From: Pseudomonadota bacterium | Lineage (GTDB): Bacteria > Pseudomonadota > Alphaproteobacteria > CACIAM-22H2 | Length of the DNA: 64,000 nucleotides | Direction of reading: 5' to 3' | Assembly: GCA_041178225.1 (NCBI GenBank) | Contig: JBEGVV010000086.1 | Coordinates: 472 to 64,471 of the forward strand | Shown here: piece by piece, positions 23,706 through 38,945 of the stretch | Numbering within the stretch: position 1 is the first letter of the stretch | Layout of the letters: each line of letters opens with the position of its first letter | Notes under the pieces: model-generated | What the model was told of the DNA's origin: nothing | Database searches by the model: none | Seen by the model: only the letters and a program-made list of their open reading frames with translations | Program-made: the position numbers and the translations under genes

Positions 23706-23744
23706 GGGGCGCTTTCCCGTCCGCCGCGGGCGGCTGAGCCTGCG

Positions 23745-24116
23745 ATGCGAAGCGATGGCCGCGGCGCCTCGATGCGCCCTCGCGTCTTCCGTCCCGGCGA
23801 GATCGTCTTCCTCGAGGGCATGCACGGCGAGGAAGCCTTCCTCCTGAAGGAGGGCGCGGTGGAGATCTTCCGTTCGTCCGGGTCGGGAGAGGTGGTCCTC
23901 GCCACGATCACGCCCGGGGACATCTTCGGGGAGATGGCGCTCGTCGACTCCCGGCCGCGTTCGGCGAGCGCGCGCTGCGTCGGCGTCGTCGTGGCGACCC
24001 CGATCCCGCGCCGGCTCCTCGAGCAGGAACTCGCGCGGAGCCCGATGATCGTGCGGGCCCTCGTCGAGCGCTACATCCGCATCATCCGCGACGCCAATCG
24101 CCGGCTGGGGGACTGA
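23745..24116 (+). CDS. stand-alone cyclic-nucleotide-binding (cNMP) domain protein
   Basis: canonical phosphate-binding cassette FGEMALVDSRPRSASARCV; 123 aa; 1 nt before CHASE2 cyclase start. Confidence 0.8.
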   Translation: MRSDGRGASMRPRVFRPGEIVFLEGMHGEEAFLLKEGAVEIFRSSGSGEVVLATITPGDIFGEMALVDSRPRSASARCVGVVVATPIPRRLLEQELARSPMIVRALVERYIRIIRDANRRLGD

Positions 24117-24117
24117 C

Positions 24118-26373
24118 GTGACCATTCGCAGCTTCGCCGCCGTCCTTCGCCGCGGCATATCGGTCATCGTGCCGAGCGTCCTGCTCGTCCTCGTCCTCGT
24201 CCTGCGCCAGGCGGACCCGGGCGACGTGCTCACCGATTTCCGCAATCGCGTCTTCGACCTCTACCAGCGCCTCGAGCCGCGTGCCCAGTCGGACGCGCCC
24301 GTGCGGATCGTCGACATCGACGACGAGACGCTGGCGCGGCTTGGCATCCAGTGGCCATGGCCGCGCACGATCCTCGCGCGCATGACGACCGCGCTCGCCG
24401 AGGCCGGCGCCGCGGCGATCGTCTTCGACGTCGTCTTCGCGGAACCCGATCGCACGTCGCCGGCAAGCGCCGCCAGGATCTGGAACCTGCCCGAGGACGA
24501 CGTCGAACTGCGCGCGAGGCTCGAGGCCATTGCCGACCACGATCGCGTCTTCGCCGAGGCGATCGCCGCGGCCGGCAACGTCGTGACCGGCTTCGCCCTG
24601 ACGCCCGACAGGACGGCCGCGCGACCCCTGCCGCGCGGTGGCTTCGCCGTCGCGGGAGACGACCCGCGGGAATTCCTGCGCGGGCGCTATGCCGGGGCGG
24701 TGACGACCCTGCCGGACCTCGAGCGGGCCGCGGCGGGCAACGGCTTCATGAACTTCGCCCCCGGGACGGATCTCGTGGTCAGGTCCGTCCCGTTGCTCCT
24801 CGCCTCGCAGGATGGCCGGCTCCATCCGAGCCTGGTCGCGGAGGCCTTGCGGGTCGCGCAGGGTGCCCGCACCTCGATCGTGAAGTCGTCCGGAGCGAGC
24901 GGCGAGACGGCCTTCGGCGCGCGCTCGGGCATCAACCAGGTCAAGATCGGCCAGTTCGTCGTCCCGACCGACGCGCAGGGCGGCATCGTCGCGCATTATG
25001 CGCGCCGCCGGGACGGGCTCTACGTCCCCGCCTGGAAGGTGCTCGACGGGGCCGCGGACGCGGCGGAATTCGATGGCGCCATCGTCCTGGTCGGCACGTC
25101 GGCCGCCGGGCTGCGCGACCTGCGCCCATCTCCGATCGATCCGCTCATGCCCGGCGTCGAGGCGCATGCGCAGGCGCTCGAGCAGATCCTGCTCGGGCAC
25201 TTCCTGTCGCGTCCGGACTGGGCGGATGGCGTGGAATGGCTGACCACGCTGGTCCTTGGCGGCGCGATGATCGCGCTCCTCGCGACGGTCGGCGCCCTCG
25301 CGTCCGCCCTCGTCGGCTTCGCGGCGGTCGGAGGCATCATCGTCGCATCCTGGTACTGCTACCGCGAGATATTGTGGCTCTTCGACCCGGTCTTCCCGGC
25401 CGCGGCGTCGCTCGCCATCTACCTGTCGGGCTCCCTCATCGGCTACCTGCGCACCGAGGCGGAGCGCAAGCAGGTGCGTGGCGCCTTCTCGCAGTACCTG
25501 TCGCCGGACCTCGTCGAGCGGCTGGCGCGCGATCCGTCGTTGCTGCGCCTGGGCGGCGAGACCCGGAACCTCACGCTGATGTTCTGCGACGTCCGCGGCT
25601 TCACGTCGATCTCGGAGCGGTTCAAGGCCGATCCCCAGCGGCTTACCCAGCTCATCAACCGGTTGCTCACGCCGATGACCGAGGTGGTCCTCGAGCGCCG
25701 GGGGACGATCGACAAGTACATGGGCGACTGCATCATGGCGTTCTGGAACGCGCCGCTCGACAACCCGGCGCACGCCGTCGATGCCTGCGCCTCGGCGCTC
25801 GCCATCCAGTCCTGCCTCGCCGACCTCAACGCGGAGCTCGCGCGCGAGGCGTTGGCCGCCGGCGAGAAGCACCAGGACCTTGCCGTCGCGATCGGGATCA
25901 ACACCGGCGACTGCGTCGTCGGCAACATGGGATCGCGGCAGCGCTTCGACTACTCGGCGCTGGGCGACACCGTGAACCTGGCGTCGAGGCTGGAAGGGCA
26001 GTCGCGCGCCTATGGCGTCGACATCGTCGTGGGTTCCTCGACCCGCTCCGCGGCCGGGGGGCTCGCGGCGATCGAGCTCGACCTCATCGTCGTCAAGGGC
26101 AAGAGCGAGCCCGAGAGGATCCACGCTCTCCTCGGCGGCGAGGACGAGGCGCGCACGCCGGCGTTTCGCGACTTCGCGGCGCTGCACGACAGGATGCTCG
26201 CGGCCTATCGCGGGCAGGCCTGGGACGAAGCGGTCGAGATCTCGGCGCGCTGCGCCGCCGCCCGGCCGACCCTGTCCGCGCTCTACGCGATGTACGAGAA
26301 GCGCATCGCCCAATACCGGGCCGAACCGCCTGGCAGCGACTGGGACGGCGTCTTCGTCGCCAGGAGCAAGTGA
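24118..26373 (+). CDS. CHASE2-sensor class-III adenylate cyclase (membrane, periplasmic CHASE2 + TMs + cyclase domain)
   Basis: N-terminal TM, ~330-aa CHASE2-like region, 3 TM, then LTLMFCDVRGFTSISE...IDKYMGDCIMAFWNAP...GINTGDCVVGNMG (metal Asp and substrate Lys suggest adenylate specificity). Confidence 0.85.
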   Translation: MTIRSFAAVLRRGISVIVPSVLLVLVLVLRQADPGDVLTDFRNRVFDLYQRLEPRAQSDAPVRIVDIDDETLARLGIQWPWPRTILARMTTALAEAGAAAIVFDVVFAEPDRTSPASAARIWNLPEDDVELRARLEAIADHDRVFAEAIAAAGNVVTGFALTPDRTAARPLPRGGFAVAGDDPREFLRGRYAGAVTTLPDLERAAAGNGFMNFAPGTDLVVRSVPLLLASQDGRLHPSLVAEALRVAQGARTSIVKSSGASGETAFGARSGINQVKIGQFVVPTDAQGGIVAHYARRRDGLYVPAWKVLDGAADAAEFDGAIVLVGTSAAGLRDLRPSPIDPLMPGVEAHAQALEQILLGHFLSRPDWADGVEWLTTLVLGGAMIALLATVGALASALVGFAAVGGIIVASWYCYREILWLFDPVFPAAASLAIYLSGSLIGYLRTEAERKQVRGAFSQYLSPDLVERLARDPSLLRLGGETRNLTLMFCDVRGFTSISERFKADPQRLTQLINRLLTPMTEVVLERRGTIDKYMGDCIMAFWNAPLDNPAHAVDACASALAIQSCLADLNAELAREALAAGEKHQDLAVAIGINTGDCVVGNMGSRQRFDYSALGDTVNLASRLEGQSRAYGVDIVVGSSTRSAAGGLAAIELDLIVVKGKSEPERIHALLGGEDEARTPAFRDFAALHDRMLAAYRGQAWDEAVEISARCAAARPTLSALYAMYEKRIAQYRAEPPGSDWDGVFVARSK

Positions 26374-26386
26374 GCGCGCTGCCCGT

Positions 26387-27655
26387 TCAGGCGTCGACCT
26401 CGACTTCCGAGCGAGGGAGGCCGACGCAGGCGAGGCACGAGCCGGGGGCGATGTCCGCGCCCGGCTTGCCTGCGTAGCCGACCTCGCCGCGCCGCACGGC
26501 GGTCGTGCACGAGCCGCAATTGCCGGCGCGGCAGCCCGAGTCCATGGCTATCCCCGCGGCCTCGGCCATCTCGAGGATGGTCGCCGCGCCGTTCCAGGCC
26601 ACGCGCTTGCCCGATCGCGCGAACACGACGGCGAGCTCGCCGGCCGGCGCGGGCGCGGTGGCGGCCGGCGGGGCCGCACCCTTCACCGAGGCGGGGCCGA
26701 AGGCCTCGTGGTGGATTCGCCCGGGCTCGACGCCCGCCGCGCCGAGGCCCTCCACCACCGACTTCATCATCGGCGGGGGGCCGCAGAGGTAGAAATGCGG
26801 CGACGCCATGTCGCCGACGACGCGCCGGATCAGGTCGACGCTGACGCGTTCGGCATGCTGGAAGCGCTCGCCGGGGGCCTCGCCCGGCTCGGGGTCGCTG
26901 TAGCAGACGTTCATGCTGACGTTGGGGTTGCGCGCGGCGACCGCCGCGAGGTGGTCCGCCATCGCGTGCTCGGCGCCGTTGCGCACGCCGTAGAAGAACC
27001 AGACCGCGCGCCGCGCGTCGGCGTCGACGATCGCGTTGAGCATGGACAGGACGGGCGTCAGGCCGACGCCGCCGCCGATCAGGACGACCGGCGTCGTGTC
27101 GGCGGGGTCCAGCCAGAACGCGCCCGACGGCGCGCGCACGTCGACGATGTCGCCGACCTCCAGGTCGTCGTGGAAGAAGCAGGAGGAGACGCCGGGCGGG
27201 ATCTCGGGCTTGCCGGGGGGCGAGCCGACGCGCTTGATGGTCACGCGGAAATACTCGGCGCGCGGGGCGTCCGACAGCGAATAGCAGCGCGTCACGGGCT
27301 TCGGCTGCCCCGGTATGTTCAGCTTGAAGGTCAGGTACTGGCCGGGATTGAAGCCCGGCAGCGGGCGGCGGTCGTGGGGCTCGAGGTAGAAGGACCGCGT
27401 GTCGCGTGCCTCGAGCACCTTGCGCGCGACGACGAACTTGCGGAACCCGTCCCAGGTGCGCTCCGCCTTCTCGCGCTCGCGCGCGCGACGCTCGGCGATC
27501 TCGGCCACGCGGGCGGAGAGCAGCGCCCGCTCGGCCTCCGCGCTGCGTCGCGCGGTCCGGGTTGCCTCAACCTCTCGCCAGCCGGCGACGGCAAGCCTGG
27601 CGCCAAGCCCGGCGAGGAGGAGCGATGCCGCGGCGGGCAGCAACGTGTCGAGCAT
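26387..27655 (-). CDS. membrane-anchored FNR-type oxidoreductase: TM anchor + FAD-binding + NAD(P)-binding + C-terminal plant-type [2Fe-2S] ferredoxin
   Basis: N-terminal TM; RCYSLS FAD motif; VLIGGGVGLTPVLSML NAD(P) motif; C-terminal CRAGNCGSCTTAV...C; GGAAGG RBS; 18 nt after OMP gene. Confidence 0.8.
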   Translation of the reverse strand: MLDTLLPAAASLLLAGLGARLAVAGWREVEATRTARRSAEAERALLSARVAEIAERRAREREKAERTWDGFRKFVVARKVLEARDTRSFYLEPHDRRPLPGFNPGQYLTFKLNIPGQPKPVTRCYSLSDAPRAEYFRVTIKRVGSPPGKPEIPPGVSSCFFHDDLEVGDIVDVRAPSGAFWLDPADTTPVVLIGGGVGLTPVLSMLNAIVDADARRAVWFFYGVRNGAEHAMADHLAAVAARNPNVSMNVCYSDPEPGEAPGERFQHAERVSVDLIRRVVGDMASPHFYLCGPPPMMKSVVEGLGAAGVEPGRIHHEAFGPASVKGAAPPAATAPAPAGELAVVFARSGKRVAWNGAATILEMAEAAGIAMDSGCRAGNCGSCTTAVRRGEVGYAGKPGADIAPGSCLACVGLPRSEVEVDA

Positions 27656-27673
27656 GCGCGGGCCTTCCGTTTC

Positions 27674-29191
27674 TCAGAACTTGATACGCAGCTCGGACCG
27701 GATCCCGAGCAGGTCGTTGTCGCGGTCGCGGCGCGCGGCTATGGCATCGGCGCGGAAGATGAGCGCGTTGGTGAGCGGAAGCTGGTACCTGATACCGGCG
27801 CCATATTGCGGGCCGCGGGCCGCGCGGCCAGCCTCGAAGGCGCCTTCGCGCACGTCGAGCCCGGCGATCTCGACGACGATCTGCTGGTCGAGCTCGAAGA
27901 GGTACTGGATCCCGAGGGCGCCGCCATAGGTGTTGTGCGCGCTGTCGTCGAGCTTCGGGAAGTTCGTCAATCCGTCTGTCTCGAACAGGATGCCCGTGTT
28001 CTTCAGGATCCCGCCGGCGCCGGGGTCGCGCGCCAGGGACTGCGGCCGGTCGAAGCCCGCGAACAGGTTGAAGTACGGCACGAGCGTCAGCGGCTTGTGG
28101 CTGATCAGGGAGTTTTCCAGAAGCACCGCGAAGCCGTCCGCGCTCTGCTGGCGATTGCGCTCGCGGTCCTGGCCGAAGGCGCCGACGACGCGGACGCTGT
28201 TCGACAGCCAGCCGCCATAGCGGCGCGTGAAGGAGATCGCCGCGCTGTCGTAGCCCTGCTCCGCGAGCTCGCGGCGCCCGTCCACGCGACCGATCCCGAA
28301 CTCCCAGTGCCCTTCGTTGGCGTCCACGAACAGGGCGGCGCCCATGATCCGGGCGTCCTTGTCCGCGAAGTCGCCCAGGGCGTTGCGCAGCGCCGGGCTC
28401 GAGACCTTGTTGAACCCGGCGAACACGGAGACGTCCATGTTCGATATGCCCAGCGTCCGGCTGTTGCGGCCAGCCTGCCCGAATGCGACGCCGGTGATCG
28501 CATCGTCCATCCATACGCCATTGTGGAAGACCAGCGGCATGAGGCCTGCCGCGAAGGGAATGTCGACGGTGCTGTACGTGCCGAACGCCCCGGACGCGAT
28601 GTTGCCGAGGTCGCCCTCGAAGAAGAAGGCGTCCACGTTGCCGTCCAGGGTCGCCTCGCCTCGGCGCCGGTCGTCCCCGGCGAACTCGTAGCGCGTGAAC
28701 TTTCCATTGCGGTCGAAGGGGCGGAACAGCGCGTGGAAGCGCTCGGTCGACGTGATCGCGAGGTCCGCCTCGAGGTTGAGGCGCGTCGCGACCTGCCCGA
28801 CCTCCTTGCTGCCCGTGTCGTTGAACGCCATCGCGGCGCGCCAGTCGCCGTACACGACCAGCGACGGGCTGGCGGGGTTCTTCGCCCCGAGGAAGTGATA
28901 GGAGGGAGGGAGCGGGCCCTCGCGGTAGAGCGGCCGCCCGATCTCGATGAGCGGCCGCGGGGTCTTCACCTCGCGCTTGCCGCCATAGATGTCGACCTGG
29001 CGTTCCGCGTCATAGGCGCCCGTGCCGTAGGACGGATCGGGCTTGAAGACGCCGGGGTCGTGCGGCACGCGCTCGACGCCCGGAGACATCGCGGGTTCCT
29101 CCTCGGCCGCGCGCGCGGGCGCGGCCGGGGCCGAGGCGAGCGCGGCGGCGACGAGGAGGGGAATGAAGCCGCTGCGAAGGTCGATGGTCAT
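27674..29191 (-). CDS. outer-membrane beta-barrel protein (porin-like, ~505 aa) within cytochrome operon
   Basis: signal peptide MTIDLRSGFIPLLVAAALASAPAAPARA; amphipathic beta-strand pattern; C-terminal ...SELRIKF; AAGGA RBS. Confidence 0.7.
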   Translation of the reverse strand: MTIDLRSGFIPLLVAAALASAPAAPARAAEEEPAMSPGVERVPHDPGVFKPDPSYGTGAYDAERQVDIYGGKREVKTPRPLIEIGRPLYREGPLPPSYHFLGAKNPASPSLVVYGDWRAAMAFNDTGSKEVGQVATRLNLEADLAITSTERFHALFRPFDRNGKFTRYEFAGDDRRRGEATLDGNVDAFFFEGDLGNIASGAFGTYSTVDIPFAAGLMPLVFHNGVWMDDAITGVAFGQAGRNSRTLGISNMDVSVFAGFNKVSSPALRNALGDFADKDARIMGAALFVDANEGHWEFGIGRVDGRRELAEQGYDSAAISFTRRYGGWLSNSVRVVGAFGQDRERNRQQSADGFAVLLENSLISHKPLTLVPYFNLFAGFDRPQSLARDPGAGGILKNTGILFETDGLTNFPKLDDSAHNTYGGALGIQYLFELDQQIVVEIAGLDVREGAFEAGRAARGPQYGAGIRYQLPLTNALIFRADAIAARRDRDNDLLGIRSELRIKF

Positions 29192-29210
29192 CTCTGGCGT
29201 CCTTGGCGGC

Positions 29211-30992
29211 TCAGCGCACTTCGAAGGCGACGCTGTAGGGATGGATGTCGAGCATCCACTCGTTCATGGCCTGCTCCATCTCCCTCGTCGCCTTGACGAA
29301 CTTCATGAAGTAGATGGGCTCGGCCCGGCTGCGCATGCGCGCGGCGAGCCTGTACTTGCCGGGCTGCGAGAGCACCTGGGCGGGCACGGTGTAGTTCGCC
29401 ACGCGCGTGCCCAGGGGCGGGATGCTGCGCGCCTCCATCCTGATGCCAGGCGGATGGTTGAGTACCGTGGTCGGCACCGACGCGGGCCGGATGAATGGCC
29501 GCTGGTCGACGTCGAAGTTGATCGGCAGGTACATCTCGCGGTCCGTGCCCTTGACGTTCTGCGTCAGGAACTTGGTCTGCAGGTTGACCAGCTGGACGTC
29601 GCGCGGGACGCGCCCGGCGAGCACGTCGAGCGAGTGGATGTCGGCCATGTCGCCGTTCGAATCGACATAGCCGCTTTCCCACACGGTCCGGCCGTCGGGG
29701 GCCACGAGGGCGACGTTCAGCCAGATCTCCGGCTGTGCGCCCAGCGACCCGGACGGCAGGTTGTGGCCGCGATTGGTGTTGGTGATGCGATAGGAGAAGG
29801 AGAGCCCCTGGCCCGCCTTCGGCGCCGAGGCGAAGAACGGCCCGTCGAGCCTCGAGCCATTCTCCATCACCTTGCGGCGGAGCTCGCGCTTCTCCTCGAG
29901 GCGCACGAGGTTCTCCTCGACGATCTCGCGCGCTTCCTCGCGGTCGATGCGATCGCCCCAGGGCTCCGGGAAGCTCTGCTTGATCTCGCCGGACTCGACC
30001 TTGTCCTCGAACTCCGGCTTGCCCCAGCCGGCGCGGTGGTCGAACTTCAGCCAGTCGCGGATGTCGAACTTCGATGCCTTGGTGTTGATCGGGAAGATCC
30101 CGGGATGCGCGATCGGGTAGCCCGGGCCGTAGAAGGCGTGGTTGCTGTGGCGTCGGTTGGGGTTCACGGGCTTGCCGTTGACCACCGCGCTCGGTCCCGT
30201 GTCGTAGCCGTTGGCGACGCCGGGGGTCTTGCCCATGTGGCATTCCTGGCAGGTGGTGCCATCGGACATCGACGGGGAGGCACGGTACTGGTCCCAGACC
30301 ACCTCGAGCTTGATCCCCGGGTGGACGGCGACCTGGTGGCAGGAGACGCAGAACTCGGACTTCGAGATCTGGTCGAGCTTGAAGACGCCGAGATGGATCT
30401 TGTTGCCGCGCTCGCCCGGCCCGGTGGCGACGCGATAGCTGTCCTTCTCGGCGATCACCTCGCCAAGCTTCCCGCCTTCGCCCGAGCCCGTGACCGGCAC
30501 GTGGATGTCGCCCGGCACGACGCTGCGTTCGCCATTGGTCTTCGCGTACTGCTCCGAGATGCGGTGGCACGTGATGCAGGTGACGCCCTCGCGCGCGACC
30601 TCGCTGCGCTCCCATAGCGGACGCCAGCGCTCCTCGCCGCGCTGCGTGCCCACCTGCTGGTGGCAGCGCACGCAGAACCCGCCGATGGTGCCCGAGGACA
30701 GGTCGTTGATCGCCTGCTCGAACTTGTGGAACATCGGCGAGATCGACGCGTAGGCGTGGTTGGACGACGCCCACTCCGCGTAGATCTGGCCGTGGCAGGA
30801 CGCGCATTGCGCGGCGGTCGGATAGGACGTCTCCGCGAGCAGGTCGGCGTGCGGGTCCTTCTCGGTCGCCGTCGCCGAGGTCTCGGGCAGGGGCGCGAGC
30901 GCGCTCCCCACGACGACGCAGAACGCCAGCAGGCCGGCGGTCAGGAGCGAGAGGCCGATCCGCGATCGGCGCCGGAGCCCGTCATCTTGCAT
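29211..30992 (-). CDS. pentaheme c-type cytochrome (5 CxxCH in N-terminal 250 aa + 340-aa haem-free C-terminal domain), secreted
   Basis: CASCH, CVRCH, CITCH, CVSCH, CQECH; signal peptide; start overlaps decaheme gene end by 11 nt. Confidence 0.85.
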   Translation of the reverse strand: MQDDGLRRRSRIGLSLLTAGLLAFCVVVGSALAPLPETSATATEKDPHADLLAETSYPTAAQCASCHGQIYAEWASSNHAYASISPMFHKFEQAINDLSSGTIGGFCVRCHQQVGTQRGEERWRPLWERSEVAREGVTCITCHRISEQYAKTNGERSVVPGDIHVPVTGSGEGGKLGEVIAEKDSYRVATGPGERGNKIHLGVFKLDQISKSEFCVSCHQVAVHPGIKLEVVWDQYRASPSMSDGTTCQECHMGKTPGVANGYDTGPSAVVNGKPVNPNRRHSNHAFYGPGYPIAHPGIFPINTKASKFDIRDWLKFDHRAGWGKPEFEDKVESGEIKQSFPEPWGDRIDREEAREIVEENLVRLEEKRELRRKVMENGSRLDGPFFASAPKAGQGLSFSYRITNTNRGHNLPSGSLGAQPEIWLNVALVAPDGRTVWESGYVDSNGDMADIHSLDVLAGRVPRDVQLVNLQTKFLTQNVKGTDREMYLPINFDVDQRPFIRPASVPTTVLNHPPGIRMEARSIPPLGTRVANYTVPAQVLSQPGKYRLAARMRSRAEPIYFMKFVKATREMEQAMNEWMLDIHPYSVAFEVR

Positions 30993-32520
30993 CTTTCGTC
31001 ATCCGTGGCTTGAGCGCGTGGTTCTGGTGATAGGCGTGGCAGGTCAGGCAGCCATCCGGCGCCTTGCCCTGCTGGTGGCATGACGTGCAGGCCTCGATGC
31101 CGACCGGGACGAAGCCGGACGACGCGGGCTTGTCGCCTTGCAGGTGGCAGGACGCACAGGAACCGGCGCCGGGCATCGCGGCGACATGCGGGCGATGGTC
31201 GAAGCGGTGCAGTTGCCGCTGCGGCGCCGGCGATCGATTCCACGCGATGGTCCGTGGCCCGTCCGCGGGACCGGAGATGGCGTGGCACTTCAGGCACTGG
31301 CCAGGCCCGTCGGCGCCGAGGATCTCCGCGCGCACGGCCTCGAGGCGCTCCGCGTCGTCGTCGTCGGCCGGGCGCGGGCTGGCGGCGATCGCGTCGAGCC
31401 AGGCGCGGACGACCGGGTCGCCATGCGCAGGCCTCGCGTAGCGAAGCTCGAGCCCTTCGGCGCGCCATCCCGGCTGCGTGGCGCCACCGGGGGGCTCGTG
31501 CTCGCGGTTGCTCGCCCAGGCGCAGGCCGCCATCCGCGCGGTCTCGCCGGAGAGGCCGCGCAGGAGCCTCGCGCCGTCCCCGCCGAGGCGGCCGGCCGCG
31601 AGCGCCGCGATCGGCTCCGCGCCTTTGGCGACCATCGCGTCCGCGAGCTTGCGCAGCGGATCGGCATAGGCGGCCTGGTCGTCCGCCGCGGCACCGAGCA
31701 GGAACGCGAGCAGCGCGTTTGCAGGGTCGAGCGACACGGGCGAGGGGTCGGGCGCGTCGCCCGGGGGGCCACATGCCTCCGGCGCCTGCGGCGCTGGCTC
31801 GAGCTCGGGCCAGCGCATCACGACGAGGTCGCGGCGCGCGATGCCCTGGTCGTGGCATCCCGCGCAGGCCGCCTCGTAGCCGAGGGTCGCGACCGCACCG
31901 CCCTGCTTCTGCGGCTGGTGGCAGCCCAGGCATTGGCCGGCGGGGACGAACTCGGCGTTGCGCGGGTCGGCGAAGTGCTTCGAGATGTGCGACGCGTGGT
32001 CGAAGCTCGCCTTGCGGTCGCTAGCGGACGGATACCAGGGCGAGAAGGGCGGGTGGCCCGCCGCGAAGCCATGGAACTGGCGGGCGTGGCAGGACTGGCA
32101 CTGCGCGTCGGGCATGGCGCTGGCCGGCAGGCTCGCGCCGCGATGCTCGGCGTGGCACGCCACGCAGCTGGTCTGCGGCAGGTCCGCCCGCTTCTCGAAG
32201 ACGGCGTTGTGCGCGAGTGACTCGCGCCCGTCGAATCCATGGCAGGTGGTGCACGCGCCGTCGATGGCGTGCGGTCCGCCGGGCCGGAGCGCGGCGAGCG
32301 CCGCCGAGATCCATGCCGTCGCGCCGCGGCCATGCGCGGCATGGCAGGACGAGCAGCCTTCCTCGCCGAGGAAGGCTGCGTGCGACGGGGACAGGGGGCC
32401 AGCGTCGAGCGAGGAGGGAAGCCGCGCGTCGCGCGCGAAGCCGCCGGCGAGGATCACGACGAGCGCGAGGACGAGTGCCGCCGCAGCGAGCGCGATCCGG
32501 CCCCGGAGTTGCGCGTGCAT
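30982..32520 (-). CDS. decaheme c-type cytochrome (6 + 4 haems separated by ~185-aa haem-free insert), N-terminal signal/anchor
   Basis: Met at aa 341 of track ORF 30982..33540 followed by TM (IALAAAALVLALVVILAGG); CSSCH, CTTCH, CVACH, CQSCH, CLGCH, CAGCH ... CLKCH, CASCH, CTSCH, CLTCH; 512 aa. Confidence 0.8.
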   Translation of the reverse strand: MHAQLRGRIALAAAALVLALVVILAGGFARDARLPSSLDAGPLSPSHAAFLGEEGCSSCHAAHGRGATAWISAALAALRPGGPHAIDGACTTCHGFDGRESLAHNAVFEKRADLPQTSCVACHAEHRGASLPASAMPDAQCQSCHARQFHGFAAGHPPFSPWYPSASDRKASFDHASHISKHFADPRNAEFVPAGQCLGCHQPQKQGGAVATLGYEAACAGCHDQGIARRDLVVMRWPELEPAPQAPEACGPPGDAPDPSPVSLDPANALLAFLLGAAADDQAAYADPLRKLADAMVAKGAEPIAALAAGRLGGDGARLLRGLSGETARMAACAWASNREHEPPGGATQPGWRAEGLELRYARPAHGDPVVRAWLDAIAASPRPADDDDAERLEAVRAEILGADGPGQCLKCHAISGPADGPRTIAWNRSPAPQRQLHRFDHRPHVAAMPGAGSCASCHLQGDKPASSGFVPVGIEACTSCHQQGKAPDGCLTCHAYHQNHALKPRMTKDAR

Positions 32521-32681
32521 GCGGCGAGGGGCGCAGGGCGCATCGCCATGCGGGCATGTCCCGTCGGCCCGCGGCCCTCGTTCGCATGGGCGCCCCCACG
32601 CCACGGCGCGCCCGCAACGCCAGCCGAGGGGCGGCCGCTCGTAGCGGCTGCGGTCGTGGCGGAACTGGTCGCGCGAGCCGG

Positions 32682-33497
32682 TCATCCTGCGTACACGTGG
32701 ACGATGAGGGTGTGCCATGCCGCCATCACGAGGAAGGCGGTCGCCGCGGGCACGTGCACGAAGGTCCATGCGCGCAGCAGCGTCTGGAGCGCGTATTGCG
32801 CGTCCACGGCGCGCTTGTGCCGACAGATCTCGGCCAGCGCGTCGAGGTGCGGCCGCTCGTCGGCGGCGAGGAGCCTTTCGACCGCGGCGAGCCTCTGCCT
32901 TTCCCACGCCTCGGCGCCATGGCCACCAAGGACATGGCTGAGCGCGAAGCGCGGCCGCTCGAAATACCAGGCAAGGGTCTGCGCGTAGTAGGAACCCAGC
33001 GTCTCGTGGCCGGCCGCCCCGGCGGCCTCGACCAGCGCGTTCTCGGCCGCGGCGCGGAGCCTCGCCACCTCGCCGGGGATGCGCTCGTAGATCAGTTCCG
33101 GCCCGCTTCGCGCGAGGCGCGCGGGCAGGATCGCCTGCAGCACGTGCCCGGCGATCCCGGAGGCGACGACCGCGAGGAAGAGCACCGCGAGCGCGCGGTC
33201 GGCCGCGCCCGCCGGCCATGCGGTCCCGACATGGATGGCGTAGGCGCCGATCGCCGCGACGCCGACGATGACATGCACCGAGAGCCAGGCCGAGGCCCGG
33301 CCGAGGGGAAGCATGGGCAGGCGCCTGCGCACGCCGTAGATGGCGAGGGCTGCGACCATCGCCGCGAGGATCCAGCCCGTGGCGAAGTCGGGGTCGATGG
33401 TCGATGCGCGCCGCGTCGCGCGCCACGCCCCGAGCGCCGCGATCCCCGCCGCGGCGAGGATCCAGAGGCCAGCCGCGCGCCTCGACATCGCCCTCAT
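32682..33497 (-). CDS. integral membrane protein, 5 TM with conserved intramembrane His (possible di-haem cytochrome-b-type quinol-interacting anchor)
   Basis: 271 aa from MRAMSRRAAG; His in TM3 (SVHVIVGVAAIGAYAIHV), TM4 (GIAGHVL), TM5 (WHTLIVHV); ATGA overlap with upstream FeS gene; GGGGAG RBS. Confidence 0.6.
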   Translation of the reverse strand: MRAMSRRAAGLWILAAAGIAALGAWRATRRASTIDPDFATGWILAAMVAALAIYGVRRRLPMLPLGRASAWLSVHVIVGVAAIGAYAIHVGTAWPAGAADRALAVLFLAVVASGIAGHVLQAILPARLARSGPELIYERIPGEVARLRAAAENALVEAAGAAGHETLGSYYAQTLAWYFERPRFALSHVLGGHGAEAWERQRLAAVERLLAADERPHLDALAEICRHKRAVDAQYALQTLLRAWTFVHVPAATAFLVMAAWHTLIVHVYAG

Positions 33498-35182
33498 CGT
33501 CCCGCGCTCCCCGTGCCATGCACGAGCAGGTCCTTGCCACCGGTACGGCGCAACGCGTCCTGCGGGCAGGCGCGCACGCAGGCGGGGCCGCCCGGTTGCC
33601 CGACGCAGAGGTCGCACTTCGTCGCCTTGCGCACGGGCTTCCCCGCCTCGTCGACGACCGGCGCGCCCGACATGTCCGATATCTCGACCAGCCGGATGTT
33701 GTCGTAGGGGCAGGATGCGGCGCAGGTGCCGCACCCGATGCAGGTGTCGTCGTTGATCACGACGACGCCGCCGACCTCGTGGCGATGGATCGCGCCCGTC
33801 GGGCACCCGATCATGCAGACCGGGTCCTGGCAGTGCATGCAGGCATTCGCGACCATCCAGTGGTCGGAGACCGGTCCATGCCTCACGAAGCGCGGGTTGC
33901 CGTCATGCGTCGAGGCGCAGGCCCGCACGCAGTCGTCGCAGCGCACGCAGCGATCGAGGTCGATCAGCATCGTCTGCGTGCCGTTGATCCAGCGCTCGTC
34001 GACCATCCAGTCGACCAGCCCGTCCTCCTCGATGCGCCTTTCGGTCGCCAGCGCCGCTGGCGCGTCGCGCAGCCCCGGGAACACGTGCTTCTCGAGCACA
34101 TGGGCGGGGACGCGGAGCACGTCGACATGGCCGAGGGCGGCGAGGCTCTGCGACAGCCGGACCTCGCCGCCGCTCTTCCACGCCGCGTAGGTCTCGGCGA
34201 GGCCGAACTGGTCGCCGACGCCGAGATAGCTCACCGTGCGCCTGCCGCCGCCGACCGCGTGCGACAGCCTCGCGAAGCCGGAACGGACGAGGTAGATGCC
34301 GTCCGGCCGGCTGCCTTCCGCCGCGATGATCGGCTCGTCCGCCGCGTTCTCCTGGCCCGCGCCCTTGCTGCGCTTGAGCGCCACGTGCCAGTCGGCGTCG
34401 CCGTAGGTCTTGAACTTCACCTTCCCGGCGATCGCGGCCAGCGTCTCCGCGTCGAGGGAGGCGAAGAGCGGATGCGCCTGGAGATGGTTGAGCAGCGCGT
34501 TGCGGCGATAGTTCTCGTCGATCCGCCGCTTCCAGCCCGGGTCGAAGCGCCGGAGCTCCCGCAGCCCCTGCCAGCGTATCTCGAGCAGGCGCGCGCCGCC
34601 CTCCGCGAACACCGTGGCCGAGCGTGGCACGCGCCCGAGCGCGGCGAGCTCGCCGAATATGTCGCCCGCCTGGAGCGTGACGGTGCGGTTCCTGTCGAGG
34701 ACGCGCGGTATGTCCTGCAGGAACATGAAGGAGCGCGCGGCGTCCTCCGGCTTCAGTCGCGCGGCACGGCCGTCGAGGTCGCGCGCCTCGGGATGGGCCG
34801 GGCGGTTCCATGCGCGGGCGATGGTCTCGAGGATCCCCCGCGTCCGGGGCGCCTGGCGCCCGAGTTCCTCCCGCGGCAACCCCGGCGGCAGGACGACGCG
34901 CAGCGTGCCGTCGAGCACCAGGAAGGCAGAGTTGCCGTAGTCGCCCTCGCGGACCGCGATCGCGCCCGGGTCGAGGGAAACGATGCGCGCGTCGTTGCGG
35001 AGTATGCCGCGCAGCGGGATGCCGGGAGGGAAGTCCTCCGCCCGGATGGCGGCGATCTCCGGCCGCTCCATCAGGGCGTCCACGTCCGCGTCGGACATGT
35101 CCGCCCCGAATGGCACGTCCCACCGCGCGAGGCGACCTACGACCGTCGTTGGCCCGCCCGCGGACCTGCTTCCGGCGTTCAC
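33494..35182 (-). CDS. fusion protein: two cyclic-nucleotide-binding domains + NrfC/PsrB/DmsB-type four-[4Fe-4S] ferredoxin domain
   Basis: PBC FGELAALGRVPRSATVFA (canonical) and FGLAETY... (degenerate); CVRCDDCVRAC, CMHCQDPVCMIGCP, CIGCGTCAASCP, CDLCVGQPGGPACVRACP; GTG start at 35182 (alt ATG 35098). Confidence 0.82.
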   Translation of the reverse strand: MNAGSRSAGGPTTVVGRLARWDVPFGADMSDADVDALMERPEIAAIRAEDFPPGIPLRGILRNDARIVSLDPGAIAVREGDYGNSAFLVLDGTLRVVLPPGLPREELGRQAPRTRGILETIARAWNRPAHPEARDLDGRAARLKPEDAARSFMFLQDIPRVLDRNRTVTLQAGDIFGELAALGRVPRSATVFAEGGARLLEIRWQGLRELRRFDPGWKRRIDENYRRNALLNHLQAHPLFASLDAETLAAIAGKVKFKTYGDADWHVALKRSKGAGQENAADEPIIAAEGSRPDGIYLVRSGFARLSHAVGGGRRTVSYLGVGDQFGLAETYAAWKSGGEVRLSQSLAALGHVDVLRVPAHVLEKHVFPGLRDAPAALATERRIEEDGLVDWMVDERWINGTQTMLIDLDRCVRCDDCVRACASTHDGNPRFVRHGPVSDHWMVANACMHCQDPVCMIGCPTGAIHRHEVGGVVVINDDTCIGCGTCAASCPYDNIRLVEISDMSGAPVVDEAGKPVRKATKCDLCVGQPGGPACVRACPQDALRRTGGKDLLVHGTGSAGR

Positions 35183-35186
35183 CGCG

Positions 35187-36143
35187 TCACTTGTAGGTCG
35201 AGGGTGCCGGCAGCTTCGGGCCGACCTGGGCCGAGAGGTCCTTGCTGGCCAGCGCGTCGACGAACTTCTTCGCGTTGTCCTCGGTCGGACGGGCGAGCAG
35301 CGCGGCCGCCTCGGGGACCTGGCCCTTGACGCCGTCGATGGCGGCGCGGGCGGCGGACTTTATCTGGTCGAGCGTCTGCTGGAATTTCGGGTTCGTGGAC
35401 TTGCCCGTGGCCGCCGACGTCTGGACGAACGCGGCCGCGTGGCCCGTCAGGAACACGCGCGAAAGCTCCGCGACGCTCATCTGCGCGTTCTTCGTGACGT
35501 CGGGCGGGTAGAACCGATGCCGTACCGTGCCCTGCGAGTAGCGCACGAGCTCGAAGCTGGAGCCCGCCGGATGGCCGGCCGCCACCATCTTGGCGATCGT
35601 CTCCGCAGGCACGTCCGCGCGGCCCATGCCATGGCAGCTCAGGCAATTCTCCGCGACGTCGTAGAGGTTGGACGGCCAGATCATGCCCGCGGCCGCCGAC
35701 TTGCGGATCCGATCGGCCTTGTGGGTCGGGGACTCGGTCTCGCGCTTGGCTCCCGCGCCGTAGTCGTTGTGCATCGTCAGCCATGCCGACGCCTTGCCGT
35801 GGCAGCTCTCGCAGGACGGGCCCGACGTCGCGCTGGGCGCTGCCGAGGCGCTCGCCTGCGTGCTCGAGAAATGGCAGGCCGTGCAGACCTCGTTGCGCCT
35901 CATGTTCGTGTTGCCGCCGACCGCGGCGATGATGTCCTTCACCTCCGGCTTGCGGTGGATGTCCTTGAAGGAGGTCGCGTGCTTCGACGCTTCCCAGACG
36001 GCCGTCTCCGCCTTGTGGCAGTCGGCGCATTTCTGCGCCCCGACCATGAAGTGCTGGGCGCCGGCGACGGTGGCGACGAGGCTCGCGAGCCCGATGCCGG
36101 CGGCCAAGGCGGCACGCCTGAAGAAGTCGAACGCTACCATCAT
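35187..36143 (-). CDS. tetraheme c-type cytochrome, signal peptide
   Basis: CADCH, CTACH, CESCH, CLSCH; MMVAFDFFRRAALAAGIGLASLVATVAGA signal; GGGGGA RBS; first gene of operon. Confidence 0.85.
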   Translation of the reverse strand: MMVAFDFFRRAALAAGIGLASLVATVAGAQHFMVGAQKCADCHKAETAVWEASKHATSFKDIHRKPEVKDIIAAVGGNTNMRRNEVCTACHFSSTQASASAAPSATSGPSCESCHGKASAWLTMHNDYGAGAKRETESPTHKADRIRKSAAAGMIWPSNLYDVAENCLSCHGMGRADVPAETIAKMVAAGHPAGSSFELVRYSQGTVRHRFYPPDVTKNAQMSVAELSRVFLTGHAAAFVQTSAATGKSTNPKFQQTLDQIKSAARAAIDGVKGQVPEAAALLARPTEDNAKKFVDALASKDLSAQVGPKLPAPSTYK

Positions 36144-36239
36144 GTCCCCCGCTGGCCATTCACGGCAGGGCCCGCGCCCCGCCGATGAACCCGAATCCCC
36201 CGGACGGTAATCGCAGGCCGGCCCGGAACTCGCCGGTCA

Positions 36240-36782
36240 TCACGTCCGAACCGGTTCCATTGGCAGCGCTTGCGCGAAAGGAAGGCGCAGGGCGTCGCGT
36301 CCGGGCCTCGCGAAGGGGGTGCTGGCGCGGGGGCGCGCGGCGAGCCCGAGGTCCCAGCTGGCGCCGGCGTCCGGCCCGCCGACATCGCCGTCGCTCGCAA
36401 GGATCCTCGCGCAGGTCGATTCGGCGAGGACCTGGAGGAAATGCCGTCCGCGCACCCCCGCGCCGACGCGGCTTGCCCATAGGTTTATCTCGAGGCGTCG
36501 GGATGCAGCGGGGCGAAGGCCGCGCGCGACCTCCGCGTCGATGGCCGGCGCATCCGTGATGCAGAGTTCGCCTGGCGCGCCGATCCCGACGAGGTGCAGC
36601 GCCTCCAGGGCGTCGATCGCGAGCGCGGCGGCTATCGGCGGAAGCGGGTCCGCTTCGCCTTCGAGCAGGCGTAGCTCCACCTCGGGGCTGAGGCAGGCGA
36701 GCAATTCGCCGAGCCTCGGCAACGCGCGCGACGCGATGAGCAGTTCGCCGGGCATCGGAAGGCGGGCGATCGACGCATGCAT
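36240..36782 (-). CDS. hypothetical protein
   Basis: track ORF directly upstream (same strand) of cytochrome operon; GC3 ~80%; no recognisable motif. Confidence 0.35.
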   Translation of the reverse strand: MHASIARLPMPGELLIASRALPRLGELLACLSPEVELRLLEGEADPLPPIAAALAIDALEALHLVGIGAPGELCITDAPAIDAEVARGLRPAASRRLEINLWASRVGAGVRGRHFLQVLAESTCARILASDGDVGGPDAGASWDLGLAARPRASTPFARPGRDALRLPFAQALPMEPVRT

Positions 36783-36858
36783 GCGACCGATGTCCCATCC
36801 TCCGCGGCCCTCCGCGCGTAGCGAATGGTCCGCAGCGGATCGATGCGGCGATGCGCGA

Positions 36859-37416
36859 TCAGGCTGCGGGCGGGAGCAGGCTGCGTGGCCGCGCCGGCGC
36901 GGACTGGGCCGTGGACGCGTTCGCGCTTCGCTCCGGGGCGGCCGGGGATTCGGCAGGCGGCGGTATCAGGCGAAGCGGCGCGGGAGGCCGCGCCTGCGCC
37001 TGCGCCTGCGGCGTCTCCGCCGGGATGGCGGGGCCCGGCGGCGCCGCTCCGTCGGGCACGATCGCCGCGATCGCCTGCTCGACGATCGTCTTGCCCGTCG
37101 CCTCCTCCACCACGCTGTCCGCGACGGCCGCGACGAGGCCGATCGGGCCGGCGAGCAGGGTCGCGACGAATATCCGCATCGCCGGTATGGGCCTTTCCCC
37201 GGTCGCCGAGGAATAGATGCCGCCAACGACGGGGACGTACATCAGCGGGTTGAGGGACGACACGAGCGACTGGAAATCCAGCCGTGCGCCGGCTGGCCGG
37301 TTCTGGCCCGCGCGGGGAAGCGGCGGGGATGCGTCGATCCGCGATGTAGGCAGCGCCACGTCCTCGCCTCGATCCGGTTTCAAGCCCGCCTGGGGGCCGG
37401 GAGCGAACCGCAGCAA
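36859..37416 (-). CDS. hypothetical membrane protein (one TM, Pro/Ala-rich C-terminus); true start probably internal
   Basis: TM MRIFVATLLAGPIGLVAAVADSVV; track ORF. Confidence 0.35.
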   Translation of the reverse strand: MLRFAPGPQAGLKPDRGEDVALPTSRIDASPPLPRAGQNRPAGARLDFQSLVSSLNPLMYVPVVGGIYSSATGERPIPAMRIFVATLLAGPIGLVAAVADSVVEEATGKTIVEQAIAAIVPDGAAPPGPAIPAETPQAQAQARPPAPLRLIPPPAESPAAPERSANASTAQSAPARPRSLLPPAA

Positions 37417-37452
37417 GCTTCGTGCCAGCGTCGAACGCCAAGATCCTGTCTG

Positions 37453-38106
37453 TCAGCGCGGCGGTGGCGCCTTCCGCAATTCTATCTCGCGCACCGTGCC
37501 GGCCGCGTCGAGGACCAGGAATTCGGCATCCCTGGCCTGTTCTGGTGCAAGCTTGTCGACGTCCGGCGGGAAGCAGCGGCGGAACGCCATCGTTCCCTCG
37601 TCGGCGCGGCCCTCCACGCAGACCTCCGGCATCTCAAGCGACAGGGCGGTCGGATTGGCCACGCGATAGGCAACGAGGATCGCTCCCCCCTCGGCCTGCC
37701 GCCAGCTGGTGATCGCCGCCGATATCTCGGATGGCTTCACGCTGGCGCCCAGCGTCACGAAGACGCCACGCGTGGAAGGCATCCAGACGGCCAGGTGGTG
37801 CCGCGCGGCGAAGGCGCCGCCGGCAAGGCCACCGAGCAGGATGGCGAGCACCGCGAGCGCGAGGGCGACGCGCGCGAGCCTGCGGGCGTCGATGCCGCGG
37901 CGGCGTGGCTTCGGCTCGCTCTCCCCGGCCTGGTCCGCGGCGGGCCCGGGCGGAGGCACCTCGACATCCTTCGGCACCGCGTCCGGCATGACCCGCCAGA
38001 TCGCCGCGCAGCGGCCGCAGGAGAGAAGCCGCCCTCCGGGTGGAACCGGGATTCCCGCCGGCAGCGTCGTCGCCGCCGAGCAGTCGGGGCAGGCGAACGA
38101 GGGCAA
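37453..38106 (-). CDS. zinc-ribbon (MJ0042-type CxxC...CxxC) + TM + DUF3426-like protein
   Basis: MPSFACPDCSAATTLPAGIPVPPGGRLLSCGRCAAIW; TM LARVALALAVLAILLGGLAGGAFA; 217 aa. Confidence 0.6.
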   Translation of the reverse strand: MPSFACPDCSAATTLPAGIPVPPGGRLLSCGRCAAIWRVMPDAVPKDVEVPPPGPAADQAGESEPKPRRRGIDARRLARVALALAVLAILLGGLAGGAFAARHHLAVWMPSTRGVFVTLGASVKPSEISAAITSWRQAEGGAILVAYRVANPTALSLEMPEVCVEGRADEGTMAFRRCFPPDVDKLAPEQARDAEFLVLDAAGTVREIELRKAPPPR

Positions 38107-38121
38107 GGGAGCGCCCCCGCG

Positions 38122-38655
38122 TCAGCGCAGCGACCGCAGGCCGTCGACGAAAGCGTCGGCCTGCTCGCGCGCGGCGCGGGAGTCCCGCCGGTAGCTGGTC
38201 ACCGCGCCCAGGGTGCGATCGCGCAGCATGTGGAACTCGAAGCGGATGTCGTAGACGACCCCCTTGGTCGAGCGCTCGCCCGAGACCCGGATGAAGAGCC
38301 TGTCATGGGCGGGCAGGTAGACATAGGTCTGGTTGAAGATGCCGAGGGCGCGCGTGTAGCGAAACAGGCGCTCCAGCGCGGGGCGCTCCTCCGGGAAGCC
38401 GTCGCGAGGCGAGGCGAGCCGCCAGCAGTTGAACCGCAGCAGGAAGTTCTCGCCATCCTGCTGGAGCGCGCCCGTCAGAACGGCGGAAGCCCCGAAGGGG
38501 TCCGGTTCGTCGAGCTTGAAGTGCCGCACCGCGCCCGGGAAGTCGACCCGGCGGTCGCAGATCCGCACCTGCTCCGCATGCGCCGGCATCGCGCCCGCGG
38601 CAGCCAGGGCGATCGCCGCGGCGATCGCCATGCGATGCAGGCGCGCGGCCCTCAT
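38122..38655 (-). CDS. secreted hypothetical protein (177 aa)
   Basis: Met148 of track ORF; signal peptide MRAARLHRMAIAAAIALAAAGAMPAHA; ATGA overlap with upstream small ORF. Confidence 0.5.
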   Translation of the reverse strand: MRAARLHRMAIAAAIALAAAGAMPAHAEQVRICDRRVDFPGAVRHFKLDEPDPFGASAVLTGALQQDGENFLLRFNCWRLASPRDGFPEERPALERLFRYTRALGIFNQTYVYLPAHDRLFIRVSGERSTKGVVYDIRFEFHMLRDRTLGAVTSYRRDSRAAREQADAFVDGLRSLR

Positions 38656-38945
38656 TTCGCGGCGTTCGAGCGCCGGAGGGCCTCGATCTCCGCAGCGGTG
38701 AGGTCCCTTCTCTCGCCAAGGTATTCCCATGCATCGGCGGTCGGGAAGCGCCGCCGCGCCGCGGCCACCGCTTCGTCGGGGTGCGCGGCCGGGAACCAGT
38801 TGTCGATATGGGTCGAGGTCCGCCGCCGGAAGATCGAGCGGACGCGGTACTCGCTGAACTGCACGGACGACCCGGCATCCTGCCGCTTGCCGGTGCGCGC
38901 GGGTTCCGTGCCGCCGAGGGTGGATCGCAGCCAGCCGAGCACCAT
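38652..38945 (-). CDS. small hypothetical protein (97 aa)
   Basis: start abuts CBS-gene stop (TGAATG), stop overlaps next start (ATGA). Confidence 0.45.
   Translation of the reverse strand: MVLGWLRSTLGGTEPARTGKRQDAGSSVQFSEYRVRSIFRRRTSTHIDNWFPAAHPDEAVAAARRRFPTADAWEYLGERRDLTAAEIEALRRSNAAK

Follow-up and report, generated by a model that had tools for sequence, protein, structure and literature searches.

A freshwater, 72% GC member of the ptdABCDEFG cluster of multihaem cytochromes and an outer-membrane barrel

The 64,000-nucleotide stretch of alphaproteobacterial DNA analyzed here (contig JBEGVV010000086.1 of the assembly GCA_041178225.1; hereafter "the window") carries on its minus strand, at positions 26387-36143, seven co-directional and mostly overlapping open reading frames (ORFs), which, judging by the sequences of their products, constitute an operon of the ptdABCDEFG type with the gene order D-E-F-G-A-B-C. 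This is a new, freshwater, 72% GC member of a named but uncharacterised gene cluster. We regard it as an even call whether the encoded proteins form a chain, gated by cyclic nucleotides (cNMP) and fed by NAD(P)H, that exports electrons to a periplasmic terminal enzyme of the c552 type served by a specific outer-membrane channel. The genes, numbered g1 to g7 from the 5′ end of the operon, are as follows.

35187..36143, minus strand: g1, ptdD-like; periplasmic tetrahaem cytochrome c, c554-like, 318 aa (Pfam, CxxCH motifs)
33494..35182, minus strand: g2, ptdE-like; cytoplasmic protein with two cNMP domains and a DmsB/NrfC-like ferredoxin part, 562 aa (Pfam)
32682..33497, minus strand: g3, ptdF-like; inner-membrane protein with five transmembrane (TM) segments, putative dihaem b cytochrome, 271 aa (TM segments, invariant His)
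30982..32685, minus strand: g4, ptdG-like; membrane-anchored decahaem cytochrome c, 567 aa (CxxCH motifs, TM helix)
29211..30992, minus strand: g5, ptdA-like; secreted pentahaem cytochrome, probable terminal redox enzyme, 593 aa (CxxCH motifs)
27674..29191, minus strand: g6, ptdB-like; outer-membrane beta-barrel, modelled with 18 strands, 505 aa (structural model)
26387..27655, minus strand: g7, ptdC-like; membrane-anchored FNR-type FAD/NAD(P)H reductase, 422 aa (Pfam)

The cluster was named in a preprint on Alphaproteobacteria of the order UBA11136 from marine oxygen-deficient zones (bioRxiv 10.1101/2023.11.21.568154), and no further paper using the ptd name was found in the literature. There, PtdA is a pentahaem protein with a beta-sandwich, PtdB a porin, PtdC an FAD/NAD(P) oxidoreductase, PtdD a tetrahaem cytochrome, PtdE a protein with cNMP-binding and 4Fe-4S parts, PtdF a ferric-reductase-like TM protein, and PtdG a decahaem cytochrome. 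The Ptd proteins were proposed to form a putative porin-cytochrome complex, possibly involved in iron reduction or nitrogen cycling, and their function was called completely unknown; high transcription of ptdAB was reported for the largest oxygen-deficient zone of the ocean, and the cluster was reported from saline habitats only (bioRxiv 10.1101/2023.11.21.568154). An earlier note on the window, made from the sequence alone, had presented the operon as a novel trans-envelope electron conduit. As a description the conduit idea was right, yet it was not new, because the same preprint had already described and named the cluster.

The window encodes the same seven protein types, in an order that is a circular permutation of the published name; for PtdF, the five TM segments and the four invariant His residues fit the published ferric-reductase-like description, with Ferric_reduct and DUF4405 scores below threshold. 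The domains and CxxCH counts of PtdC, PtdD, PtdE, and PtdG (Pfam, NCBIfam) agree with the published features, and a porin gene adjoins ptdA here as well: g6 starts 19 nt past the stop codon of g5, and its product yields a barrel model with porin-fold matches. All seven homologues, with 33-63% identity and in the window's gene order, are also present in an alphaproteobacterial metagenome-assembled genome (MAG) from the Eastern Tropical North Pacific (ETNP; locus L021). A difference concerns PtdE, in which the preprint counts two 4Fe-4S clusters, whereas the 16 conserved Cys residues seen here fit four.

Operon structure, conservation, and variant loci

The seven genes are for the most part as tightly coupled as the earlier note had stated: ATGA overlaps connect g2 with g3 and g3 with g4, and g4 overlaps g5 by 11 nt. 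Only the g1/g2 junction has a 4-nt gap, not several junctions as had been listed, and the last two junctions are gaps of 19 nt (g5/g6) and 18 nt (g6/g7). A motif count (in Python) confirmed the proposed haem numbers, with 4 CxxCH motifs in g1, 10 in g4, and 5 in g5, that is, about 19 c-type haems in the operon; no CxxCK motif was found in these three proteins. Because the window has a GC content of ∼72%, spurious antisense frames fill mechanical ORF lists. The seven ORFs are set apart by domains that can be recognised, by being conserved in other genomes, and, where it was computed, by a high GC content at third codon positions. Two antisense ORFs that oppose real genes, of 1094 aa (26012-29296, plus strand) and 1154 aa (36319-39783, plus strand), are high-GC artefacts.

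In the public gene calls for the window's own cluster (loci L001-L006), PtdE is shortened to 534 aa and PtdG to 512 aa by the choice of internal ATG codons. These shorter starts were rejected, since they would cut off conserved N-terminal motifs: RPxRWDxPF in PtdE and the Cys-rich FRHDRSxYERP..WRCGR..W.KPC..GP..G.C in PtdG, the latter being kept in other species and starting right at the ptdF stop codon. Both motifs lie upstream of the MAG-called ATGs, so the longer, coupled starts chosen in the earlier note (GTG at 35182 for g2 and ATG at 32685 for g4) are better, and the public calls mask the translational coupling as well as losing the motifs. No Rfam family was detected over 25500-37500, scans for sigma-70 promoters and intrinsic terminators returned no sites within 26000-37000, and no FNR/CRP-type box (TTGAT-N4-ATCAA with up to 2 mismatches) was found upstream of g1.

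When a g6 profile was run against GTDB with one genome per species, the ptd cluster turned up in at least 547 species, which come from oceans, lakes, and groundwater; 80 loci were fetched, and gene presence, order, and identity were assessed by tblastn with the seven window proteins in 79 related species loci. All seven genes are present in 46 of the 79, a recurrence that is far beyond chance. The window's order is the commonest one, seen in 38 of these complete loci, followed by C-E-F-G-A-B-D (4 loci, as in Hwanghaeella), A-B-C convergent with D-E-F-G (3 loci), and A-B-C-D-E-F-G (a single locus). The proposal of the earlier note depended on the operon order being kept in relatives, and it is. 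Wherever there was enough sequence (67 loci out of 67), a ptdA homologue lies on the same strand directly upstream of ptdB. The complete cluster is also present in a cultured host, Hwanghaeella grinnelliae Gri0909 (locus L076), which makes ptd genetics and biochemistry feasible.

Lake-type metagenome assemblies and MAGs contain an identical copy of the g6 protein, with the same neighbours. Among the matches listed, the closest labelled relatives of the host, itself a 72% GC MAG, are Alphaproteobacteria MAGs with 92% identity in PtdB; one of them (L028) has a name that points to the water column of a lake. A closed alphaproteobacterial MAG of 4.96 Mb carries a 62% identical g6 homologue within the same seven-gene block, surrounded by unrelated flanks. 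Some hosts have iron-related names (Ferrovibrio, Ferruginivarius), although names are no evidence of physiology.

Median identity to the window proteins in the 46 complete loci declines from 64% for PtdA, the best-conserved gene of the cluster, through 55% for PtdE, 53% for PtdB, 51% for PtdC, 46% for PtdD, and 40% for PtdF, to 33% for PtdG, the least conserved one. This gradient fits a chain with a terminal enzyme and a specific channel at one end and fast-evolving electron wires in its middle part.

The variant loci bear on the electron supply. Four of them, L024 (Ferrovibrio), L057, L068, and L083, have no homologue of ptdC. In three, a single protein of 697-802 aa combines an N-terminal Pyr_redox_2/3 flavoprotein with two cNMP-binding domains and 4Fe-4S motifs (Pfam), encoded at the following positions.

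L024:14174-16267, Pyr_redox-cNMP-Fer4 fusion
L057:4096-6462, Pyr_redox-cNMP-Fer4 fusion
L083:14227-16635, Pyr_redox-cNMP-Fer4 fusion

For L068, the flavoprotein portion alone was checked (tblastn), and it gave a match of 88% identity to the Pyr_redox domain. That ptdC is missing in exactly those variants in which the ptdE homologue has gained a Pyr_redox domain by fusion points to an NAD(P)H flavoprotein as the electron donor of the cNMP-FeS protein. Locus L054 (4165-11503) encodes a tetrahaem PtdD, a PtdF homologue (E=4.6e-48 to the PtdF profile), an FHA-decahaem PtdG, PtdA, and PtdB, whereas L038, L086, and L030 encode PtdA and PtdB alone, with or without PtdD. Since all four keep PtdAB with reduced sets of partners, PtdAB is the core of the system, and its electron-supply module is exchangeable.

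Predicted electron path and alternative readings

The proposed chain would begin with PtdC, anchored at the cytoplasmic face of the inner membrane, oxidising NAD(P)H through its FAD and [2Fe-2S] cluster. PtdC matches Pfam FAD_binding_6, NAD_binding_1, and Fer2, the latter corresponding to a C-terminal plant-type [2Fe-2S] domain; it scores 250 bits against the reductase half of the flavohaemoprotein Hmp and retains the cofactor motifs RCYSLSD, GGGiGlTP, CGPPPMM, and CRAGnCGtC. Its N-terminal TM segment is followed by a very basic stretch, so that the FNR domain should face the cytoplasm. The assignment of g7 as a membrane-anchored FNR-type FAD/NAD(P)/[2Fe-2S] reductase, made in the earlier note, agrees with these domains; that of g2 as a cNMP-binding protein with four [4Fe-4S] clusters agrees with those of PtdE.

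From PtdC, electrons would pass to the four predicted [4Fe-4S] clusters of PtdE. This protein contains two stretches of the Pfam cNMP_binding domain and an NrfC/DmsB-like Fer4_11 domain, and its matches to the NCBIfam DmsB, NrfC, and HybA models are all below cut-off. At least 90% conservation is seen both for its 16 FeS Cys residues, which fall into four groups, and for the phosphate-binding cassette FGELAALGRvpRtAt of the first cNMP domain. The latter domain thus has an intact cassette, which makes it conceivable that cAMP or cGMP gates the PtdE step. No signal peptide, TM segment, or Tat motif was found in PtdE, and the presence of cNMP domains likewise places it in the cytoplasm.

PtdF would then carry electrons across the inner membrane through two b haems bound by four invariant histidines. 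It has five TM segments, in line with the 5-TM anchor of the earlier note, and a conserved cytoplasmic insert of ∼110 aa. His75, His89, His248, and His262 are exactly the invariant histidines in alignments of 53 and 33 sequences, and are retained in distant variants of 22-24% identity; they form two pairs with a 14-residue spacing on two helices, which are probably parallel. This classic His signature points to a transmembrane dihaem b cytochrome. A PDB sequence search with the PtdF profile gave nothing meaningful, and Ferric_reduct was matched by 2 of 33 PtdF homologues, with E values of 0.003 or weaker.

Four-His, two-helix dihaem b proteins commonly carry quinone sites. PtdF could accordingly resemble NarI/FdnI and act either on quinol, as a dehydrogenase, or on quinone, as a reductase, with the periplasmic chain fed by quinol and with PtdC and PtdE either feeding the quinone pool or serving only in regulation. 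We consider this very unlikely, even though L054 encodes PtdF, PtdG, PtdD, PtdA, and PtdB with no PtdE or PtdC nearby. In 50 examined loci (46 complete ones and 4 variants), PtdF is accompanied by PtdE and a flavoprotein, either PtdC or a fused Pyr_redox domain, and the conserved cytoplasmic domains of both PtdF (∼110 aa) and PtdG are suited for the docking of cytoplasmic partners. No recognised quinol-oxidising family scored in the Pfam and NCBIfam searches. The quinol link suggested in the earlier note finds nothing in the sequence to indicate it, since there is no NrfD-, NapC-, or CymA-type module.

On the periplasmic side of the NAD(P)H-fed chain, the decahaem PtdG and the soluble, c554-like tetrahaem PtdD would relay electrons. 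PtdG has a TM helix at residues 58-89, followed by the periplasmic haem domain; PtdD matches Pfam Cytochrome_C554 with 48.5 bits and has a signal-like N-terminus (Sec). The Cys-rich cytoplasmic N-terminus of PtdG (32521-32685, minus strand) contains one CX9CX9CX5C unit here and two in most species, a pattern that may bind Zn or FeS. In L024 and L054, it is replaced by an FHA-like domain.

The electrons would finally reach PtdA, a c552-type pentahaem cytochrome with a beta-sandwich, which is probably the terminal redox enzyme. In this 593-aa protein, a long helix and a C-terminal Ig-like beta-sandwich stand beside the haem domain, and conservation in the family is very strong, with extended invariant motifs (for example, GHNLPSGSLGAQPE) in its non-haem half as well. 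The pentahaem cytochrome is unlikely to be the simple wire of a conduit, as in the earlier note, given that PtdA is the most conserved gene, as expected for an enzyme. PtdA has been likened to the cytochrome c552 of Thermochromatium tepidum, whose own function is unknown (bioRxiv 10.1101/2023.11.21.568154); the window protein also resembles it (PDB 5ze8), with only 16% identity and ∼200 additional residues. A Foldseek search of the PDB with the PtdA model, in which the haem domain is of low confidence, gave no match at E up to 0.001, only generic beta-sandwiches. In some PtdA homologues (660-742 aa), the haem domain is separated from the long helix by a charged, probably helical insert; it measures ∼65 residues in P0209, P0220, and P0231 (alignment A2, columns ∼390-465) and is also present in homologues of 732-742 aa.

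PtdB, as an 18-stranded specific channel, would admit an external substrate for PtdA or let the product out, and its conserved periplasmic N-terminal extension may dock PtdA. The barrel of ∼505 aa ending in F that the earlier note described is borne out by the protein length of 505 aa, a signal peptide, the C-terminal F residue, and a beta-barrel in the AlphaFold2 model (built from a 27-sequence alignment; pLDDT 77.5). In this model, the barrel covers residues ∼105-505 with 18-19 strand segments, and porin-fold matches indicate the 18-stranded monomeric fold of OprD/Occ and AlgE. PtdB therewith models as an OprD/AlgE-like substrate channel rather than an MtrB-like sheath. At the sequence level, it matched no Pfam or NCBIfam family at E up to 0.1 (OprD and Alginate_exp included) and no PDB entry at E up to 10, and its profile retrieved nothing meaningful from the PDB. 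The most conserved stretch is a long loop at residues ∼383-420, which by strand parity should be extracellular and of the type that folds in as a constriction in such channels. The N-terminal ∼100 residues are poorly modelled, yet many of them are invariant; they include the conserved extension of ∼70 aa after the signal peptide, which should be periplasmic, since some homologues carry LysM or AMIN fusions there. Two such homologues are P0012 (846 aa) and P0030 (622 aa), with N-terminal FimV_N+LysM or AMIN domains. FimV_N+LysM and AMIN are peptidoglycan-binding modules. The objection that the barrel might be a generic or alginate-type porin thus applies to its fold, but not to its being unrelated to the cytochromes, as it is invariably coupled to the pentahaem gene.

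It is rather unlikely, in our view, that PtdA, or part of it, docks in PtdB to make a true porin-cytochrome conduit, with Fe(III), Mn(IV), humic substances, or an electrode outside the cell as electron acceptors. The barrel gene always adjoins a multihaem cytochrome gene, the ∼19 c-type haems could span the periplasm, and the strongly conserved N-terminal extension of PtdB could bind PtdA. Furthermore, unexplained iron reduction has been noted in oxygen-deficient zones with high ptdAB transcription (bioRxiv 10.1101/2023.11.21.568154). However, the operon encodes no redox lipoprotein for the cell surface, and a conserved lipobox Cys is missing from both PtdA and PtdD. The decahaem protein scores 19 bits against the 192-bit cut-off of the MtrA/DmsE family, and PtdA, with its 593 aa and a bulky non-haem beta-sandwich, is the most conserved protein of the set, whereas the outward-facing parts of known conduits are variable.

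For the NAD(P)H-fed chain, outward electron flow would be assisted by the membrane potential and would conserve no energy, which suggests regulated export of low-potential reductant, as in a split NOX or Fre-MsrQ system; Ptd looks unlike a classical respiratory metal-reducing conduit. The reverse direction, with PtdA oxidising Fe(II), reduced sulfur, hydroxylamine, or NO and electrons moving through PtdD, PtdG, and PtdF to NAD(P)H or quinones, is distinctly improbable. Electrons that enter the cytoplasm from the periplasm by way of a dihaem b protein have to move against the membrane potential, Fe(II), nitrite, and hydroxylamine can reduce NAD(P)+ only in a steeply uphill reaction, and no subunit for coupling to the proton-motive force is encoded. 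FNR or Pyr_redox modules and cNMP gating are, in addition, typical of NAD(P)H-consuming systems. Such inward flow would suit the likeness of PtdD to c554, which takes electrons from hydroxylamine oxidoreductase in nitrifiers. It would also suit the reported hosts of the cluster, which include nitrite oxidisers as well as Alphaproteobacteria with transcribed sulfur-oxidation genes (bioRxiv 10.1101/2023.11.21.568154).

One candidate substrate of the periplasmic enzyme is a sulfur or selenium species that permeates poorly, or an oxyanion, by analogy with the porin ExtI and the pentahaem ExtKL/MccSep of Geobacter; chelated Fe(III) is another. ExtKL/MccSep has been reported as a periplasmic polysulfide reductase that consists of a five-haem cap and an Ig-like stem, with the passage of its substrate across the outer membrane left open (bioRxiv 10.1101/2025.11.18.688581).

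Several observations weigh against an NAD(P)H-fed chain that ends in a periplasmic enzyme. PtdA does not have the Cys/Sec pair on which catalysis by MccSep depends. Its model has a pLDDT of <50 over residues 98-234 of the haem domain, and no open or unusual haem coordination site could be made out. PtdF scores for DUF4405 and Ferric_reduct are sub-threshold only. There is no PtdE or PtdC within locus L054, so PtdF may accept electrons from quinol or another partner, and in the split arrangements, ptdC goes with ptdAB and not with ptdE. An 18-strand barrel is also predicted for Geobacter ExtB, whose cluster has genetic support as a conduit (PMC6148476), so the strand number of PtdB does not by itself decide between a channel and a conduit. 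What stands of the trans-envelope electron-transfer operon of the earlier note is the conserved set of NAD(P)H/FeS, dihaem-type, multihaem, and barrel proteins, while its metal-reducing conduit logic is less favoured.

If electrons are indeed exported in this way, the Ptd system would provide Gram-negative cells with a new route from cytoplasmic NAD(P)H to the periplasm under cyclic-nucleotide control, and the c552-type pentahaem family with its first function outside Geobacter MccSep. A broader proposal, quite unlikely at present, is that Ptd is a widespread, second-messenger-gated reductant export system of planktonic bacteria, a split counterpart of NOX and ferric reductases that spends NAD(P)H with the help of the membrane potential, has ∼21 haems and a new class of periplasmic pentahaem enzyme supplied through its own outer-membrane channel, and serves a non-respiratory purpose. 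That purpose might be the reductive uptake of complexed Fe(III) or the reduction of polysulfide, selenium species, or oxidants, and such reductant export could account for the very high ptdAB transcription in oxygen-deficient waters.

Neighbouring genes

Downstream of the operon, three plus-strand genes converge on ptdC, with 13 nt between the stop codons, and lie outside the operon.

22068-26373, plus strand: FecR-domain protein (545 aa), small cNMP-binding protein (123 aa), and CHASE2 adenylate/guanylate cyclase (751 aa), identified with Pfam

These are possible regulatory neighbours of ptd. In 7 other species loci (out of 79 loci with 568 kb of flanking DNA), a full-length homologue of the CHASE2 cyclase is encoded no more than 10 kb away from ptd genes, which we judge to be above the expectation for such genes; a functional link between this cyclase and the cNMP domains of PtdE may be envisaged. 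On the other side, the genes at 36240-38106 (minus strand) for a DUF4347 protein, an unassigned 185-aa protein, and a zinc-ribbon-like membrane protein were rejected as members of the system, because they are not conserved beside the cluster in L007. The window also encodes FliF, an FlgE/F/G-type rod protein, and MotA (40072-41814, 45501-46292, and 59459-60307, respectively), which shows the host to be motile.

Comparison with known electron-transfer systems

Membership in the MtrCAB/PioAB, Cyc2, NrfA/OTR, and MccSep groups was tested by their defining features and rejected. For the first three of these groups, the failure of the family models and of the other defining features examined supports the reading of the earlier note. 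The likeness to MtrCAB, PioAB, and MtoAB consists in multihaem cytochromes encoded beside an outer-membrane barrel and in electrons that originate at the inner membrane. MtrB and PioB have ∼26 strands (Pfam MtrB_PioB), in contrast to PtdB with its 18 modelled strands and OprD-like fold. Against the MtrA/DmsE model TIGR03508 (cut-off 192 bits), PtdG scored 19.3 and PtdA 37.9 bits; PtdG differs from MtrA also in being a membrane-anchored decahaem protein. PtdA scored 11.6 bits with the MtrC/OmcA model TIGR03507 (cut-off 209 bits), and the ptd operon encodes no lipoprotein of this type. Input to MtrCAB comes from quinol oxidation by CymA-type proteins, as opposed to the NAD(P)H/FeS input predicted here. 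Because PtdB contains no cysteine, there is no haem c motif fused to the barrel and the protein is not Cyc2-like.

The earlier note had named a known NrfA/OTR-class enzyme as the outcome that would speak against it. The PtdA scores are below cut-off for both the NrfA model Cytochrom_C552 (15 bits versus 24.1 bits, with no CxxCK motif) and the OTR model TIGR04315 (19.5 bits versus 375 bits).

Of the features that define the Geobacter Omb/Ext conduits (PMC6148476), the ptd operon has the periplasmic multihaem cytochromes and the barrel but no outer-membrane redox lipoprotein, so it was rightly kept apart from this type. A closer parallel is the G. sulfurreducens cluster extHIJKLMNOPQS, which encodes the porin ExtI, the pentahaem ExtKL, cytochromes with 12, 10, and 4 haems, a cytochrome b, and an FeS protein (PMC5877670). 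In both, a porin-like protein is encoded beside a periplasmic pentahaem cytochrome with a haem cap and an Ig-like beta-sandwich, and neither includes a surface cytochrome. The ext input is of the Rieske/cytochrome b type (bc-like, quinol), unlike the combination of FNR, cNMP-FeS, and dihaem b proteins here; the rhodanese ExtH and ExtJ have no counterparts in the ptd operon, and PtdB matches no named porin family at the sequence level. With the ExtKL model NF040886 (cut-off 250 bits), PtdA scored 32.1 bits over an N-terminal stretch only. MccSep has a haem-ligating Cys and a Sec/Cys residue, neither of which is present in PtdA, whose mature part contains no Cys outside the CxxCH motifs and therefore cannot use the Cys/Sec chemistry of MccSep. 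Ptd would work like the ext arrangement but is not a member of it, because it fails the sequence models, lacks the catalytic residues, and has another input module.

On the input side, Ptd resembles the NOX/FRE and Fre-MsrQ systems, which likewise pair an NAD(P)H flavoprotein of the FNR type with a membrane-spanning dihaem b protein, have His pairs ∼14 residues apart, and export reductant. The dihaem b proteins of the NOX, FRE, and MsrQ families have two His pairs on two TM helices with a spacing of 13-14 residues, and the predicted haem ligands of PtdF, H75/H89 and H248/H262, appear to match this pattern. Ptd differs from these systems in having separate genes, an additional FeS protein possibly gated by cNMP, and ∼19 c-type haems downstream.

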